Assembly: GCF_964213995.1 (NCBI RefSeq)
Contig: NC_135818.1
Span: forward strand, 47,058,001 to 47,122,000
From: Mustelus asterias
Taxonomy: Eukaryota
Reading direction: 5' to 3'
DNA: 64,000 nucleotides
Shown: one piece after another, positions 5,921-64,000 of the stretch
Numbering within the stretch: position 1 is the first letter of the stretch
Layout of the letters: each line of letters starts with the position of its first letter
The notes under the pieces: model-generated
The model's input: only the letters and a program-made list of their open reading frames with translations
Told to the model about the DNA's origin: nothing
The model's database searches: none
Translations under genes and position numbers: made by a program

Positions 5921-6988
5921 GTACTCCAGATATGGTTTCACCAAATAAACAACAAGACTTTCTTATTCGTATACTCTAACTCCCTTGCAATAAAGGTTAA
6001 TATAACCACTTGCCTTCCTAATTGCTTGCTGTACGTTAACTTCCTGTGCATCCAGATCCCTCTGCAAATAAGTTTTAGTTCTATTCTTCCTACATAAGTG
6101 GATAATTTCACATTTCCTCGTAACCTACTTCATCTGCAAACTTCTTATCCACTCACCTCACCTGTATATATCCCTTTATGTAATTCTCAGCTTATTTTTC
6201 CACACAGATTTGTATTTGTTACATGTTTAGGAAGGATGCAGGTTTCTTTAAGATCTGATCACATGATTTGATGGTGATGTCATTAGGGTGTGTACTTAGG
6301 CTGCTGTTTTACTTTCAAATTTGCATTTGATGCAGTGCAGCGAGCAGCTCTTCGATAAAATCTGTTGTATTGTTTGAATCTACGTGTGCAAGCTATGTTC
6401 TTTTCTTTGTTAAAACCCACAACCCCTAACAAAGTTAGGTCATTACAGAAAGAAAATTGGCGATGAGGATGAGATTTTGTTTCATTGAGAAAAGATCCTA
6501 AGTCGCAGGAAAAAAAAATGTGGATCCTCACACTGGGGAGAAGCAACAACAGGATTAAAGATTAAACTGCCAGTGCCAGGAAGAAATAAGAAAAAAGCTC
6601 TCTGTGTTGTTTTTAAAAGGGGTGTTTTTCCAATCAGAGAAGGGAGAGATTCCAGGCAGTATCTGGAATATTTGAAAAGAGTGTATGCTGTGCTGTATAG
6701 CTGAGGCTATTAAAAAAATACATCAAGTCAACGATCTCCAGATTAAAAAAGGGAATGCTGAGAAGACAGTATTAAAAAATATATAGTGAGCAGTCTTGAG
6801 TTGCTGGTGCCTGCAAAATAAATGGTGGATCAGTTAGAATCCATGGGTCCTTTCAATTGAGAAAATGAATCTTGGAGTTCCTGTGCCAAGCGTTTTCAGT
6901 GCTTTGTACAAGCGAATAAACCAATTTTTCTCAGTACAATAAGATGTAAACTTGTAATTTGCTCTAAAGCTTGGTTCAACCAACAAAG

Positions 6989-7175
6989 TAAGAAGTTTAA
7001 CAACACCAGGTTAAAGTCCAACAGGTTTATTTGGTAGCAAAAGCCACACAAGCTTTCGGAGCTGCAAGCCCCTTCTTCAGGTGAGTGGGAATTCTGTTCA
7101 CAAACAGAGCATATAAAGACACAAACTCAACTTACATGAATACTTAGGATCCAACGCCGGCATCTCCACATCATG
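6989..7175 (-). mobile_element. Penelope-like terminal fragment (family A) with inverted tail, inserted in Gypsy gag
   Basis: 13-bp duplication TCAACCAACAAAG (6976-6988 / 7176-7188). The body is in minus orientation, followed by the 3' tail TCCAACGCCGGCATCTCCACATCAT in plus. Confidence 0.7.
7046..7084 (-). ncRNA. second copy of the minimal hammerhead motif
   Basis: Minus strand TCAC-CTGAAGA-A-GGGGC-TTGCA-GCTCC-GAAA-GCTT-GTGT; stem II retained through a G-U pair while the loop differs. Confidence 0.7.
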
Positions 7176-7699
7176 TCAACCAACAAAGCCAGGAAGCAAA
7201 ACTTACAATGACTTGACAAAGATCCTTGAAGAGCATTACGTTCCAAAGCCATTGATCATTGCAGAACGGTTCAGGTTCCACCAAAGGAATCAAATGGAAG
7301 GCAAAAGCATTGCTCAGTTTGTGGCAACCTTAAAAAGGCTCGCACAGCATTGTGAGTTTGGCGAGTCACAGCAGATTCTCTTCGCAATCATCTGGTTTGT
7401 GGTCTCCAAAATGTGGCTCTCCAAAGAAGATTACTTACTGAACATGCTTTTTCTTTAAAGACAGCCCTAAAAATCGCAGTGTCGATGGAACAGACTGTCA
7501 AAGAGGCTTCACAATTTGGTGCAGGAATGAAGATCCAAAGATTGGGAACTGCCGATAAGTCAAAACAGCAAAACACATGTCACAGATGTGCCAAAATGGG
7601 TCATTCGAGTGAATGCTGGGTAATTTTCTCAGGATCAAAATAGACACTTGTGCAACCTGCTGACAACAGTCATTTGATCTGGTGTACAAAATGTTTCTG

Positions 7700-8614: not shown

Positions 8615-9057
8615 ATAGAATCCTAAAGTGCAGAAGGAGGCCGTTCGGCCCATCAAGTCTGCACCAACCATAATCCTATCCAGGCCCTATACGCATTACC
8701 CCATGCATTTCCCGTAGCTAGTCCTCCTGACACGAAGGGGCAATTTAGCATGGCCAATCCACCTAACCCACACATCTTTGGTCTGTGGGAGGAATGATGT
8801 GGAGATGCCGGCGTTGGACTGGGGTAAACACAGTAAGAAGTTTAACAACACCAGGTTAAAGTCCAACAGGTTTATTTGGTAGCAAAAGCCAGCAGATTCC
8901 TCCCTGTGGGAGGAAACCAGAGCACCCGGGGTAAACCTACACAAACATGGGGCGACTATGCAAACTCCACATAGATAGTGACTCAAGCTGGTAATCGAAC
9001 CCAGGTCCCTGGCACTGTGAGGCTGCAGTGCTAACCACTGTGCCATCATGCCGCCCT
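8615..9057 (-). mobile_element. HE1/V-SINE, CR1-like tail type 2 (hosts a family A insert)
   Basis: Head at 9057; tail ...GATGGGCCGAACGGCCTCCTTCTGCACT..GATTCTAT. Confidence 0.85.
8794..8903 (-). mobile_element. Penelope-like terminal fragment (family A) inserted in a V-SINE
   Basis: Same sequence as the 36916-37010 segment; duplication CTGTGGGAGGA (8783-8793 / 8904-8914). Confidence 0.72.
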
Positions 9058-36321: not shown

Positions 36322-36769
36322 CTATAAATTTTGAGAATCGGAATAGCCATTTAAAATCATGGAAACATGAAATGCAAAATCAAATATAATTTCTGAATTT
36401 TGAATCAGAGCACAGATGACGTTAAAGGAATTTCTTTATTAATCGCCAGAAAGGCAGGAATTTATATGATTTATATTCATTATTGGAACTGTAAAATAAA
36501 TCAACTGTGATCATTTACATCAGGGAACAATTCCAATTGCAAATTACAGCCTCACTAATTCATTTTATGTACTTTGAAGCGCATGAAGTGATCTTTAAGA
36601 TCCTTGTGATCTTTCTTAACAATGATTATAAAACTCGAGCGGCATGGTGGTTAACACTGCTGCCTTACATCGCCAGGAACATGGGTTCGGTTCCGGCCTC
36701 AGGTGACTGTGTGGAGTTTGCACGTGTCTGCATGGGTTTGCTCCAAGTGCTCTGGTTTCCTCCCACAGT

Positions 36770-37009
36770 GTTTGTACCTTTAAGACTTGATTAGCTGTAA
36801 GTATTCGCATTCCAACCATTATTCTGTAAATTGAGTTTGTGTCTTTATATGCCCTGTTTGTGAACAGAATTCCCACTCACCTGAAGAAGGAGCTTAAGGC
36901 TCCGAAAGCTTGTGGCTTTTGCTACCAAATAAACCTGTTGGACTTTAACCTGGTGTTGTTAAACTTCTTACTGTGTTTACCCCAGTCCAACGCCGGCATC
37001 TCCACATCA
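36770..37009 (+). mobile_element. Penelope-like terminal fragment (family A) inserted in a V-SINE
   Basis: 13-bp duplication TTCCTCCCACAGT (36757-36769 / 37010-37022); contains the hammerhead motif and an AATAAA. Confidence 0.75.
36877..36915 (+). ncRNA. minimal type-I hammerhead ribozyme motif in a Penelope-like terminus
   Basis: TCAC-CTGAAGA-A-GGAGC-TTAAG-GCTCC-GAAA-GCTT-GTGG: CUGANGA and GAAA cores, 5-bp stem II, stem I CAC/GTG, palindromic AAGCTT helix III. Confidence 0.72.
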
Positions 37010-40000
37010 TTCCTCCCACAGTTCACAGATGTGCAGGTTAGGTGGATTGGCCATGCTAAATTGCCCTGAGTGCGTAGGTTAAGTGGATTAGCTATGGTGG
37101 TTGTGCTGGGTTGCGGGGATAGGGCAGGCCTGGGTGGGATATTCTTCGGAGGGTCAGTGCAGACTCAATGGGCTGAATAGCCTCCTTCTGCACTGTAGAG
37201 ATGCTATGATTCTAAGGAATAATTGTAGCATAGCTGGCAAGACAATATTCAATATATCTTGTTCAGAGCATCCCAACAATGCAGAAGCAGGCTACTCTTC
37301 AACTATTCTTATCTACGAAAGAAAGATATTTCTTATCTGAACAAACTTGTTTTTTAATAATCAGAAAGGATATGTTGGCTTTTGGCCTCAACAGTAAATC
37401 AAAACATCCCAGAATTTTGGTTCAATTGTCCATTAAAATTTAACTACGTGGTTATCTAAAAGCACACTGTTTCATTATGGTTCTAATGATTAAACAATAT
37501 ACACTTTGCCCTTAAACAAATATGGATTATTTTATTGCCAGTTCAAGATTACAAGGTTTCATTTAATATTGAAATCGGAGCTGAAAAGATATTTGTTTCC
37601 TTAGGTTAGACAGAAAATTATTCAATATTCAGCCAAATGAAAAATTGGATGGCAAATAAGTCTTAAGAGGGAATAAAGGAATATGTCAATGCACCACTTC
37701 ATGTTTTGTAGTCTTTGGTGATCTGGTATTTATAATTACCAATTAACTTCTACAGTTCTATTGTTTTGACGTGTAATTTAGTTTTAAAAGGTTTACTGGT
37801 AATTGTCTTTTTAAAAACAACCACTTGCATAGACCTCCTTGGTACATGCAACGTTATGTATTAAATTGCACCAGAATGTAGATCTCAAAGTGAAAATGGA
37901 CATGATACCACTTTTTTTTCCATTGAGAGAAATCCCAGATCTCCTATTGAAAAATAAACTCACACAACTTCCTGATCTACTGAATGAAATCAAAATAAGC
38001 TTATTTTAGTGTCCCTCCTAGCCCTGCACTGACAATAATCCACAATAACAATGGTTATGTTACACAAGGAAAGGTCTGTTGCGAATATAAAACTTCAGTA
38101 CTGCCACAAGCTGACATACTCCAGAGATAGTCAAAAAATGTTATCAGCATACCACCAAGGGCTCATTCTCAATTTACATTTTACACTATGGGCTTGATAG
38201 CTTTTAAACTGAGTTCTGCAGTTGAGTAGTAATAGTCAATTAAAATCTATCAAAATTATGACAATTGTCTTGACTTCTTTTAAAACTTCAACACTGATAT
38301 AACATAATTATATTGGAAGTTACTGTGTATTGTAGCAGGTTACATATTCTCATCTATATTTGCCAACCTTGAGCAACAAGGAAAAGGAAAAGATGGGAAC
38401 TGAAAAAGATAGGAAGAAACGTAAGTTGACAAATTACTCTCTGGTTGATCAGAGAAATTAAAGATAGTATCAAAGGAATCTTAACTTTCTCACCTTAACC
38501 TTCTGAACAAGAGAATACCACACAACATGGGGAAACAGAGAGGAGCTTAAAAAGATGGAAAATGGGACAGAAGGGAATTTTAGTTTTATTTATAAAAAAA
38601 TACACAGGGGCCCCACTATAACATGGTCTGCTACAGCATGGAACTGAGTATAATATGGATCCCTCTTGGACCCCAAAATTTTAAGTATTTGTCCAGTCTG
38701 GTATTAGAGTCTTCCTGAAGACTTCTATATAAGTAACTAAACTCTGCTTAGGTAGCAAAGGCATTTCAGCTGACCTCAGCACTACTGTGTTAGGAAAGAG
38801 GCAAACATGCCAGTGCTGCTGCTGGCTGTCCAATAATTCCTGCTGGATAGTGTATACATATGTAAGCCCAAGTTCTAAGCACCAACAAAAGACACAGCTT
38901 TGAGTGGGCCCAATGCGTACACATCTTATTGGCCTAGGAGAAAGGCTAATTGATCTCAGAAACAAAAATACCCGTACCTTTATATGAAACCAGATGTGTT
39001 TCTCACCAAATACATTGTAACATGATCTCGAGATATGGATCCCATGAGCCACATTATAGCGGGATCTCAGTGCAAGTCAAACGTTAAGAGTTGAACATTG
39101 AATATATAACACAAATATTACTCAGATATGCTTTCCTTTACTGAACAGAGCCTCTCCACTTGCATCTTCATGTGTACAGATCATTCTGAGAAATATAATC
39201 AGAGTAATTATGCTATGATTCAATCTGCAACTTAACACTATTATATAAAAGTTGATCAAAAATCAAGATTCAAGTATTACAGGTACTTCTGAAACAAAGG
39301 CCAATCGATCAAATCATCCTGTGAAACTTGTTTCACTTTACCTTAGTCCTGTAACCACGTACTCACTAAGATTAACCAATCTGAAGCATTCTTTGATGGT
39401 TCCATCATCTCATTGGAGAATGCAACAAGTAAGAGAACAAGAACTTATTGAAAATAAGAACAGTTATTGTTTCATAACTCAATTTCAATTTAAAATGCAT
39501 CACCATGAAGCAAAATGCTCATCAGTTGGATGCAGAGTCCTACATGGTTCCATAAAAGACAAATTACAATCACAAACTTTATTGATTTATGTCAAGATTT
39601 TGGATGCCTCCTTCCCGAATGAGGACATTTAACATCAAGGCATAGTCTTGAAAATTCAGGTGATTTCAAGTGAATTTGGACATAAATGTTGGCTCACTTT
39701 TCTTTATGACTCAAAATACCAGATAGTGCCCCTGTACAGAATCCATGGTGTGGATAGACACTTCCTCCCTCCTTCACTGAGATGTGGGGAGTTAGGATTA
39801 AAAGCAATGACCTTTGTACAACTCAACCTAAACACAGAGAAGAGCCGAATGTAAAGACTCATCTTATAAAATCATCAGGAGACTAAAAACTGCATTACAA
39901 CTACATCCCCCAATTTAATTATTAAGTGTACATGAAATATTTTGCCAGGCACCTGGTACACCACCCAAAGTGTTCTTAACCCCATAGATCAATATTTTCT

Positions 40001-42769: not shown

Positions 42770-44715
42770 ATAAGAACTAGGAGCAGGAGTAGGCCACCTG
42801 GCCCCTCAAGCCTGCTCCGTTATTCAATAAGATCACGGCTGATCTTTTTGTGGACTCAGCTCCATTTACCCACCCGCTCACCTTAACCCTTAATTCCTTT
42901 ACTGTTCAAAAATTTATCCATCCTTGCGTTAAAAACATTCAATGAGGTAGCCTCAACTGCTTCACTGGGCAGGGAATTCCACAGATTCACAACCCTTTGT
43001 GTGAAGAAGTTCCTCCTCAACTCAGTCCTAAATCTGCTTCCCCTTATTTTGAGGCTATGCCCCCTAATTCTAGTTTCACCCGCCAGTGGAAACAACTTCC
43101 CTGCTTCTACCTTATCTCTTTAAAATTCTTATATGTTTCTATATGATCTCCCCTCATTCTTCTGAATTCCAATGAGTATAGCCCCAGTCTACTCAGTCTC
43201 TCCTCATAAGCCAACCTTCTCAACTCCGGAATCAACCTAGTGAATCTCCTCTGCACCCCCTCCAGTGCCAGTATATCCTTTCCAAAGTAAGGAGACCAAA
43301 ACTACACATGAATTCAAGGTGTGGCCTCATCAGCACCTTATACAGCTACAACATAACCTCGCTGTTTTTAAAGTCCATCCCTCTATCAATGAAGGACAAA
43401 ATTCCATTTGCCTTCTTAATTACCTGTTGCATCTGCAAACCAACTCCTTGAGATTCCTGCACAAGGACACCCAGGTCCCTTTGCACAGCAGCATGCTGCA
43501 ATTTTTTTACCATTTAAATAATAGTCCATTTTTCTGTTATTCCTACCAAAATCGATGACCTCACATTTACCACCATTGTACTCCATCTGTCAGACCCTCG
43601 CCCACTCACTTAGACTATCAAAACCCTTTGCAGACTTCCAGCGTCCTCTGCACACTTTCAGCGTCCTCTGCACACTTTGCTCTGCCACCCATCTCAGTGT
43701 CATCTGCAAATTTTGACACACTACACTTGATCCCCAACTCCAAATCATCTATGTAAATCATAAACAATTGCGGTCCCAACACTGATCCCTGAGGCACACC
43801 ACGAGTCACTGATCGCCAACCAGAAAAACACCCATTTACCCCCACTCTTTGCTTTCTGTTAGTTAACCAATCCTCTATGTTAATACATTACCCATAACAC
43901 CATGCACCTTTATCTTATGTAGCAGTCTTTGGTGCGGCACCTTGCCAAATGCCTTCTGGAAATCCAGATACACCACATCCACAGGTTCCCCATTGTCCAC
44001 TGCACATGTAATGTTCTCAAATAATTCACCAAATTAGTCAAACATAACCTTCCCTTCATGGACCCATGCTGCGTCTTACCAATGGGACAATTTATATCCA
44101 GATGTCTCGCTATTTCTTCGTTGATGATAGATTCAAGCATTTTCCCTACTACAGAAGTTAAGCTAACCAGCCTATAGTTACCTGCCTTTTGTCTACCTCC
44201 TTTTTTAAACAGTGGCGTCACATTTGCTGTTTTCCAATCTGCGGGAACCACCCCAGAGTCCAGCGAATTTTGGTAAATTACCACTAGTGCATTTGCTATT
44301 TCTCCCGCCATCTCTTTTAGTACCCTGGGACGCATTCCATCAGGACCAGGAGACTTGTCTACCTTTAGCCCCATTAACTTGCCCAACACTACCTCTTTCG
44401 TGATAATGATAGATTCTAGGTCCTCACCTGCCATAGCCTTCCTGTCATCAATTTTTGGCATGTTATTTGTGTCTTCCACTGTGAAGACCGACACAAAATA
44501 CCTGTTCAATGCCTCAGCCATTTTCTCGTTTCCAGTTATTACATCCCCCTTCTCATCCTCTAAAGGACCAATGTTTACTTTAGCCACTCTTTCTCATTTT
44601 ATATATTTGTAGAAACGTTTGCTATCTGTTTTTATATTCTGAGCTAGTTTACTCTCATAATCCATCTTATTTTTCTTTTTAGCTTTTTTCGTGGCTTTCT
44701 GCTGACCTTTAAAGA
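42770..44715 (-). mobile_element. CR1 LINE 3' 2 kb (RT) inserted in a SINE tail
   Basis: ORFs KVDKSPGPDGMRPRVLKE, GVPQGSVLGPQLFMIYIDDL..SKFADDT and RRNFFTQRVVNLWNSL. Confidence 0.93.
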
Positions 44716-60982: not shown

Positions 60983-62183
60983 CTACATGAAATTGAAAAA
61001 AATGAATGTAAAAGTAAACCATGCTGCTGGAGAACAACTAAACTGCTGAGTAACTGAAGTCATAGTTATTAAAGAACACAACTAGTTCCTGGATTTCATA
61101 TAAATATTAACATGTTCATGCCTATAACTACAAATCTTATTTGACAAGACATTGGTATAAACTATGCTCAAGTGTTTTTTAAAGGAGTGCTTAAAGATGG
61201 AAAATTCTACTGTGGATACAGCCAGAGTCAAAAGTCAATATAGACCTGGAATGCACAAGTGTTTCACCCAAATCTTGCATATTACCTGAAATTTACTTGG
61301 ATTGATCCAAATACATCTGATAAAAGTTAAACCATAGGTGGGCCATATGAAAATAAGTAATTTTTAAAACTGATCTTCTGCTTCTTGGTTTCATTGAACA
61401 AATCAGTCCCATTAGACTATTTCCCTGAATGGCTTCCAATGGTGCTGTTGTTATTCATGAAAGCAGCCAAGGATTTGGGCATTTGACTGCCATGTTGCCA
61501 GAGAATTAGTTTTGTATACTGCGCACACACAATTGTTTCTGATTGACGTTATCCAGTGATCCCTGGTTACACAAGATTATCGATGAGCAGGCGCATGTCT
61601 TTTAGATGTGGTTTTGCTGTCATGTCTAATAGTGAACTAGGCTATACACTGCAATGGCTCACACCAAGAATATGTCCTTCTGAGGTACTGGAGAGTTTGA
61701 GTTTTACTCCAGCGTAATTAAACATTTCCAAAACATGAAGCAGATGGAAAATGTAATTCTTAAAGGTGTGCAAAATGATAACAAATAAGCAAGTGGACTA
61801 ATAAGAATATTTTCAACAGGATGGTATCTAGAGAAACACTACCAAGGACAGGAACAGTGAGCTTTCTACTTGGCTTGGGAACAGATCATGCATGCACCTA
61901 TTTCCTTGAAAAAATAGTATGCAGAATCTTGATAGGAGGAGATTTACATTCCTACAAACTTTATAAACAGTGTTAAGAATGGCTTTGCCAGAGACCTCTA
62001 AATTGGTTGCTTGCTTGGCTACCAGTTCAGAAAATGGTGTCTGGCAAAGAGAGCAATGAGGAGAAGCGAAAATGCAAAATTAAAAGTGCCCCTGACAAAA
62101 TCTGAAACATACTATCCAAATTATTCAACATTTCAGAATTAATTCCATGTTAACAAATGCTGCTTATCTATATAAGTACCTAC

Positions 62184-63314
62184 CTTTTTCCTTGATCTCA
62201 GCCTCCTGTACTATAATGCTGCTGCTCGAGCTTGTACTGGCATCAAACCCATTGGCAGACTCGCTCTCACACAATCCTTCCTGCGATTCTCCAGCAACAC
62301 TGTCCACTTCTATAGTGATGTCACTTTCACTTTTTACGCTACGAACTTCATCCTGATGAAGCAATGCTGGGGAAGCAATTGGCAAAACCTGCTGCACCGA
62401 CGCAGATACAACAGCTATTACTGACTCAGGAGAATTGGATCCCGAGTTTCCAGCATGCATATCTTCACTGTTACTTTTCTCTTTTTCATCAAAGTCATCC
62501 AAATCTACCTCATGGCAAACTAAAGCTTCAGGTCCAATTGGAGGCATAATATCTTCTTCAGTTTTCAATGAAATATCCTCTTCAATTTCTAAACAGGGAG
62601 CTTCCAGTTCCTGCTTCACACACCTGTCTGTCACAATCTCTAAAGGAGAGGCTTCACCATTTTCGAGTTCTAACCTTTCAACAGTTTCAGATTCTTCACA
62701 ATTGCCTGCAAAGCACTCCATTTTCTCAATACCTTCATCTTTTACAGTTTGCGTTTTTTCTTCATTTTCTATCCGAAGCCTTTTATCAGGTGTTAACTGT
62801 TCTGGAGATTTTCTTTTCCCTGGCTTCTTCTCATCATTTGTAAGCTCAGTTGTCAAGCCAGGATCTGTAACTGGGATGGTTTCTTCAGGCACATTGGGAG
62901 CAGGTAGCAGCTTGACCTCTGAGCTTTCCAATGTTTCCATATTTTCTCTGCTTTCAGTAATTATGTGATTAGCAAGGTGAGTCTTGTTATGTTCCGAATA
63001 TAAATCCCGTGTCCTACTCCTCCTTCCTTTGCCCTTTGGCGACTTGTCTACAATCTCTTTCTGTATATCTTCAGCCTGAGTTACCATTTTCTCATTGTCA
63101 GTTTGTTCTATACTTTCTACTTCTTGCTTTACAGATGTGATTTTCAAATTCTCCTCACATGGTAATTCCCTTGTTTCTTGCGTACAAATATCTTTTAGTT
63201 TTTTCCCCTCAGATTTCTCTTCTTCATCTAATGTCTTTGCTGAAACAACATCTTCTTTGACAGATTTGTCGGCTGAAATTTCTATTTCACTTTCATCTGA
63301 GGAGTTGCTAGACC
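62184..63314 (-). CDS. ARID4A: ARID4A large acidic exon
   Basis: 1131-nt open frame containing IMPPIGPEALVCHEVDLDD and RSVKSESDITIEVDSVAGESQEGLCE, which are ARID4A-type motifs; ttatag acceptor and G|GTAGGT donor. Confidence 0.93.
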
Positions 63315-64000
63315 CTATAAAACATGATTTCAAATTAAATATTGAGAATGAAGTAAAAATAAAAATGCAACATTATAATACGTAGTTCAACTAATATCTT
63401 ATTCTGGAATGGACAGAAAATATTAAAGATGTGGTTCTAGAGAACTGGCAGAGAGCTAGCCTATACCTATATTTAAGAAGGGAGATAGAACATGTCTAGG
63501 GTATTTTAGACCAGTCAGCTTAACTTTGGTGGTCGGAAAAATATTGGAATTTCTACTAAAATTGAGAACAGAAGGAAACTTAGAAATTAAAAACATAATA
63601 GCATGGATTTCAAAAGGCTTGAACAATGTAATTGAATTGTTGTGGTGGTGACAGGGACAATAGACAATGGTAATGCAGTAGTTTTAATTTATTTGGAGGT
63701 CTTTCATAAGATGTCCCATAATAGACGATTGTATGAGAACAGAGAATGTGAAGACTGGGGACAAGTGGCAGCACAGATTGCTAGTTGGTTTAAAGACAGA
63801 AAGTGGGAGTAAAAGCTAGCTATTCAGAGCAACAGAAGGTGGGTAATGTTGTTCCACAAGGATTAGTGCTGGGAAAATTGCTGTTCATAATTTACATTAA
63901 TGATTTGGACTTTGAGAGCAAAAATGCAACTTGACAGCAAATTGGAGGATGATGGTCAATACTGAGGAGGACTACAACAAGTTTACTGGAAGGATTGATA

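Follow-up and report, generated by a model that had tools for sequence, protein, structure and literature searches.

A putative Penelope-type element inserted twice at the same base of the V-SINE core of Mustelus asterias, at a site that fits a short two-sided motif

The stretch of DNA analysed here, called the window, comprises 64,000 nucleotides of Mustelus asterias contig NC_135818.1 (positions 47,058,001 to 47,122,000). It holds 12 SINE copies composed of a tRNA-derived head and the V highly conserved domain, as judged by a by-eye match to the V_HCD, Ac1 and MER6 rows in the supplement of PMC6887750. V-SINEs are described in PMC4824008 as including HE1 of sharks and rays. Head and V-domain are common to the 12 copies, and two tail types separate them into 5 and 7 copies, with a tree support of 1.0 for the 5-copy group. 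Of the 12 V-sites in the window, two carry an insert (2/12), in agreement with a preliminary description of this DNA that spoke of two of about a dozen SINEs being hit. Both hit SINEs, A and B, fall in the 7-copy tail group, and a third copy of the inserted element, C, lies elsewhere. The features concerned are as follows.

36638..37212, plus strand: host V-SINE copy A (tRNA-like head, V-domain and tail), split within the V-domain
36757..36768, plus strand: duplication of A, 5′ copy, 12 nt, with left half-site TGGT before it
36769..37009, plus strand: insert A, putative 5′-truncated pseudo-LTR end of a Penelope-type element, from sequence comparison with B and C
36876..36915, plus strand: predicted minimal hammerhead motif (CUGAAGA, one unpaired A, 6-bp stem II opening with G-C, GAAA, palindromic AGCU, short helix I)
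36972..37010, plus strand: 'tail' of 38-40 nt between the inner end used by the inverted arm of C and the outer 3′ end
37010..37021, plus strand: duplication of A, 3′ copy, 12 nt, then degenerate right half-site TTCA
8615..9057, minus strand: host V-SINE copy B; identity to host A 72%
8904..8915, minus strand: duplication of B, 5′ copy, 12 nt, with TGGT before it
8892..8903, minus strand: 12 extra nt of B, the first 7 pairing back onto the duplication (8-bp hairpin, -6.9 kcal/mol as DNA)
8795..8891, minus strand: insert B, last 97-98 nt of the element
8783..8794, minus strand: duplication of B, 3′ copy, then right half-site ACCA
6976..6987, plus strand: duplication of C, 5′ copy, 12 nt (non-SINE), with TGGT before it
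6988..7148, minus strand: inverted arm of copy C; carries a predicted hammerhead motif at 7054-7080 and stops 38-40 nt before the outer 3′ end is reached
7150..7175, plus strand: forward arm of copy C, made up of the final 25 nt and a G; the two arms meet in a near-palindrome around GGATCC
7176..7187, plus strand: duplication of C, 3′ copy, then right half-site GCCA
3116, 12608, 18646, 18957, 49141: SINE copies of the 5-copy tail group
8615-9057, 28883, 32048, 36638, 40929, 45052, 47662: SINE copies of the 7-copy tail group

Elsewhere in the window there are LINE-type reverse transcriptase fragments (RVT_1) at 16505-17341 (+) and 43621-44593 (-), and G/C-rich tandem repeats at 19650-22690 with two N runs (the window has 493 N). 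An acidic open frame of 402 aa at 62164-63372 (-) has no Pfam match, and 29322-29570 (+) gives a weak match to the Tim10/DDP zinc finger (E 1.2e-4). Both are likely host exons, and may resemble an ARID4-type gene beside a small Tim gene.

The last 30 nt of the element have two exact matches in the 64-kb window, 36981-37010 (+) and 8794-8823 (-), and none of 100 shuffled sequences yielded two matches to this 3′ end. Inserts A and B are identical at 98/98 nt and the next base 3′ of both is the same V-domain base, which bears out the earlier observation of one foreign element with one 3′ junction in two SINE copies. Copy C is identical as well over its 58+25 shared nt, so that the identity of A and B reflects a young family. 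Around each insert lies an exact duplication of 11-13 nt (A), 11-12 nt (B) or 12-13 nt (C), the range depending on the assignment of shared end letters; for A and B this duplication had been described beforehand. The difference in length and 5′ junction between the inserts was likewise borne out, A being about 241 nt long and B about 109 nt (97-98 nt of element and 12 extra nt at its 5′ junction). The fold-back at this junction (8892-8915, minus strand) suggests a free single-stranded 12-nt overhang during insertion. Copy C (6988-7175), previously placed in a Gypsy gag, is real; it lies outside any SINE, and the gag label comes down to a weak Retrotrans_gag match (E 1.2e-4, below the Pfam cut-off) which it directly precedes. 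Its inverted arm is 93.8% identical to A over 161 nt and its 3′ end is identical at 25/25 nt. At 7135-7148 the arm lacks about 18 nt present in A between two TATTC repeats (36790-36826).

With the inserts removed, hosts A and B share 72.1% identity, and the nearest SINE copies are at 74.7% for host A and 76.0% for host B, in comparisons that exclude tree row S42749 (a fragment with tail only). A and B are not sisters in the tree, and they diverge immediately past the duplication. Since the hosts are only 72% alike, and the 5′ junctions are unlike while the inserts agree at 98/98 nt, our data support that A and B are separate insertions of a young element into two old, unrelated SINE copies. 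The preliminary description had already argued for independent events rather than one amplified composite, and the pattern expected of a composite SINE, a single clade with one 5′ junction, is not seen in hosts A and B.

The inserts were earlier called parts of a ribozyme-bearing Penelope-like element. The hammerhead motif is present in A and C, and a minimal-hammerhead descriptor finds 2 sites in 64 kb, both inside the element; B has no motif and its element part begins 1 nt past the cut predicted after 36911 (one case). Stem II folds and is kept in A and C despite unlike loops. Rfam gave no match at gathering score and two chance-level hits at E up to 10, and folding z-scores of the whole motif did not reach significance (-0.3 to -1.4 for stretches of A, +0.5 for C, +0.7 for the 3′ end). 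In public contigs the predicted cleavage base 36911 varies between U and A, both of which are permitted, with A at about half to four fifths of the depth. In copy C the inverted arm falls 38-40 nt short of the tailed one, and the sequence is nearly palindromic where the arms meet (one copy). All three copies combine a short duplication and 5′ truncation with the lack of a poly(A) or simple-repeat tail. Copy C ends in ATG, and the loose-end consensus of two public runs (X5 and X8, see below) starts with the G that completes this ATG.

Among 150/154 ORFs of 75 aa or more in the window, Pfam gave no GIY-YIG match, and RVT_1 matches only in the two LINE-type fragments, far from the inserts. No ORF of the element was found in the window, so that its Penelope membership is assigned by architecture, namely hammerhead motif, shorter inverted arm and tail. 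The insert is likely the pseudo-LTR end of a Penelope-type element, which would encode a reverse transcriptase and a GIY-YIG endonuclease. Patterns of the element had 0 matches in metagenome, genome and viral collections. A shorter 18-mer matched 47+1 prokaryotic or viral loci; these were rejected as chance, the match never extending beyond 24 nt.

This architecture can be compared with described systems. Endonuclease-positive Penelope-like elements (Penelope/Poseidon, Neptune, Nematis) are described with truncated terminal-repeat inserts, duplications and a hammerhead in the repeat, all of which have counterparts here. In Pen2a_Av of Adineta vaga the inverted repeat is 37 bp shorter and a 31-bp tail is given (PMC3846280), and for PAc of the anole the tail arrangement is explained by two reverse-transcription starts (PMC11167929). 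Both resemble copy C in the head-to-head inverted arm (shorter by 37 bp there), the tail of 30-40 bp, the palindrome at the inverted junction and, probably, the cutting of both strands. The hammerhead motif agrees with the metazoan Penelope minimal hammerheads of PMC4209133 in the unpaired base after position 9, G10.1-C11.1, the palindromic 15.2-16.2 and a short helix I, and differs in its 6-bp stem II and in its absence from B; it is here a predicted motif. As in the V-SINEs HE1 (PMC4824008) and Ac1 and V_HCD (PMC6887750), a tRNA-like head is followed by the V-domain, here with the target site, the match to Ac1 and V_HCD being made by eye.

Under uniform insertion, the chance that 2/3 insertions strike the same SINE base in the same orientation is 1.6e-5. 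The sole duplication length fitting all three copies is 12 nt, and in this register the left flank ends in TGGT in 3/3 copies, and the right flank starts with ACCA in B, GCCA in C and TTCA in A, whose half-site has 2/4 motif letters only. All three insertions fit a 12-bp duplication between inverted half-sites, TGG(T)-N12-(A)CCA. Three adjacent letters common to all four half-sites, as in B and C, are found in 6e-5 of random site pairs, and two common letters, as in A and C, in 2.8e-3 of random draws. An extended motif score with a maximum of 16, fitted to these same sites and so drawing on two independent targets (the SINE site and C), gives 13 for A, 16 for B and 15 for C. With this score, all 12 V-sites reach 12-16/16. 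About 63 kb contain 161 sites with a score of at least 12, of which V-sites make up 7.5%; at a score of at least 13 the V-site share is 20%, and the site of B is the single top score in the window (16/16). TGGT occurs in 4/12 V-sites, and both hit SINEs are among those 4 (chance 0.09, by hand). Both carry the CpG-decayed CTGG, seen in only 4/12 copies, where the SINE consensus is CCGG. The V-domain thus happens to spell TGG(T)-N12-(A)CCA well, apparently best after CpG decay of CCGG to CTGG.

Simpler or looser preferences were also considered. With a preference for GTT or GGTT alone, the observed hits have a chance of 9e-5 to 2e-3, an estimate which overstates the chance by counting all 12 SINE sites as carriers, and one-sided short motifs (GTT, GGTT, TGGTT) were rejected as sole cause because 2/3 hits stay improbable. 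A looser likeness between the 3′ region of the element and the V-site (GTTT..CCC..AGTCCAA) is within shuffles (p 0.29). Furthermore, 5/5 nt at the top-strand end of the SINE duplication could pair with 36971-36975 of the element (CUGUG), and 5/6 nt at that of the C duplication with 36972-36977, where the inverted arm of C starts; about 0.5% of window positions have such complementarity.

Data from public runs were compared with 36593-37252 as query, using contigs X1, X5 and X8, which carry three organism labels, and raw reads X21. Element and SINE are very abundant in the three contig runs, with 146,071-281,121 contigs matching the stretch, and the raw-read run had 17 matching reads only. In X5 and X8, which represent other organisms, mostly with a sister subfamily (G at 36960/36962), the element stops at 37010 and is followed by other DNA in 2057 and 1657 contigs, respectively, and the agreement with a flank consensus at these contig ends is only 0.35-0.36. 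In these two runs, therefore, the element is not confined to the V-site. Past position 9, the only G/C letters of the flank consensus are C at 15 (X5) or 14 (X8) and GG at 17-18. From the motif with its 12-nt spacing one would expect C at 14-15 and purines at 17-18, a comparison made post hoc with the consensus lines already seen. Random flanks had no G/C letter past position 9 in 300/300 draws. The consensus opens with letters resembling read-on into the element. Shared read-on at about 8% of contigs gave 1-3 G/C letters in 42/100 simulations, and in 0/100 at 12% or more; that such letters land on the predicted places would be a coincidence of about 4e-4 (by hand). Simulations with the motif gave CC at 14-15 and an agreement of 0.32-0.41, but A instead of G at 17-18. 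At a consensus agreement of 0.35 the simulated V-site share is about 1-10%, and hence 2/3 at the V-site in one window is still a lucky draw.

The joints listed (15 of 1421) were SINE-to-SINE. Among the pieces listed (24 of 456,130, beside 19 loose-end rows of 2416), at least one contig each in X5 and X8 (pieces 15 and 24) joins the element to the V-domain no more than about 8 nt from the site hit in A and B, and both pieces have 18 other letters and 8 bases fewer on 36920-37066. They perhaps come from one common older insertion 8 nt away, or from another junction type. These pieces are neutral between a hot spot and SINE targeting, because a few junction-spanning contigs are to be expected by chance among thousands.

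We hold it moderately probable that the V-domain is a motif hot spot, where the enzyme prefers TGG(T), 12 bases, (A)CCA, and the V-SINE core spells this by chance. The preliminary description had proposed a target preference for the V-domain with the SINE as safe harbour. Of this, the non-random target stands; the SINE as such is less apt than a short symmetric motif that is present also at the non-SINE target of copy C. A DNA motif is preferred over SINE targeting since 1/3 local copies and the 2057 and 1657 contigs end outside the V-site; dedicated SINE targeting fits less well than the motif hot spot, and a 'safe harbour' role is unsupported.

Under the motif hot spot, an autonomous copy elsewhere would provide the reverse transcriptase-GIY-YIG protein, which would likely nick both strands 12 nt apart, one nick per half-site, as a dimer would. 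Such a dimer is predicted for the anole Penelope protein, an enzyme reported to cut both strands and to extend them (PMC11167929). The bottom nick would then prime cDNA at the outer RNA end. In copy A the top end may have been joined to truncated cDNA, in copy B it may first have folded back on itself, and in copy C it may have served as primer for a further cDNA from the inner start, 38-40 nt upstream, giving the inverted arm. Abundant V-SINEs with near-top motif scores, especially after decay of CCGG to CTGG, would be hot spots that hold a minority of the copies. A more specific version, in which a vertebrate Penelope dimer reads a bipartite palindrome with fixed 12-nt stagger, the RNA (CUGUG) serves as a check and the V-SINE core is the main landing pad, appears doubtful to us.

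Alternatively, the element may home to the V-domain as a safe harbour, in the manner of retrotransposons that target rDNA or U2, with the other sites as spill-over onto look-alikes. This agrees with the 2/3 local copies and 2/4 TGGT-type V-sites that are hit, with the top score of the B site (16/16) and with the contigs of X5 and X8, at least one in each, in which the element leads into the V-domain at most about 8 nt away from the hit site; however, copy C lies outside any SINE, the contig ends elsewhere agree at only 0.35-0.36, and both hits are on decayed CTGG copies, whereas the SINE consensus is CCGG. We consider such homing unlikely. PLE-X in 28S rDNA (PMC8557442) and Utopia (PMC4640811) likewise insert repeatedly at a single position within a multicopy sequence that is conserved, and other non-LTR elements are well known to target repeats (PMC4640811, PMC8869645). 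PLE-X and Utopia are described as largely or strictly confined to their target, whereas our element has thousands of other sites and a SINE core as target. Strict targeting of the R2, Utopia or PLE-X type is not what we see, as copy C and the 2057 and 1657 contigs (X5 and X8, other organisms) are elsewhere. A weak preference together with chance, a very abundant element meeting an abundant SINE in a luckily picked window, is also improbable. There are three insertions only, many windows were scanned, and 146,071-281,121 contigs in related runs match the SINE-plus-element stretch, all of which speaks for luck, but the figures for uniform insertion (1.6e-5) and for a GTT or GGTT preference (only 9e-5 to 2e-3) are low, and the half-site agreement between unrelated targets would be improbable.

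Quite unlikely, too, is a choice of sites guided by RNA, in which the top-strand end of the duplication pairs with CUGUG (36971-36975) of the element RNA and no protein reads the half-sites. Such guidance would account for the complementarity of 5/5 (SINE) and 5/6 (C) at the inner start, met at about 0.5% of positions; it leaves the outer TGG half-sites unexplained, and A and B have no inverted arm and hence no pairing product. Moreover, reverse transcription by the anole element is reported to start on RNA not homologous to the cut DNA (PMC11167929). RNA pairing could nevertheless act together with a motif hot spot. Finally, one insertion may have been copied between SINEs, as a composite SINE or by ectopic gene conversion, and later shortened in B, which would explain the same base, orientation and 98/98 insert as well as the CTGG variant common to both hosts. 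This we regard as very improbable and largely refuted already: the hosts are 72% identical and unlike directly past the duplication, and in B the 5′ junction is a fold-back of its own, with the element part beginning at the cut predicted for the ribozyme.

The preferred reading, a motif hot spot, would differ from the preferences reported for Penelope elements, which are for AT-rich DNA (5′-ATT-3′) or microsatellites (PMC11167929; PMC3846280). In contrast to Pen2a_Av and PAc, the site here contains C and G and is two-sided with 12-nt spacing. Precise Penelope targeting is reported in PMC8557442 only for the endonuclease-less PLE-X in spike-moss rDNA, and neither a Penelope target motif with two sides nor a V-SINE hot spot for Penelope elements turned up in the open-access and bioRxiv literature searched.

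Target choice and cutting by Penelope elements are little known, and one full-length protein has been studied in vitro, with AT-rich preference (PMC11167929). A motif preference would be a sharper targeting rule than those reported for these elements. If it is true, a family of tens of thousands of copies with a two-sided, fixed-spacing motif would make the dimer and double-nick model directly testable, both in genome data and on a short DNA substrate. Moreover, finding this element at the same site in two SINE copies would not prove their common descent. If the reading with a dimer and an RNA check is also true, this lineage would integrate sequence-specifically and in part under RNA guidance, in a group of elements whose insertion is regarded as almost random.
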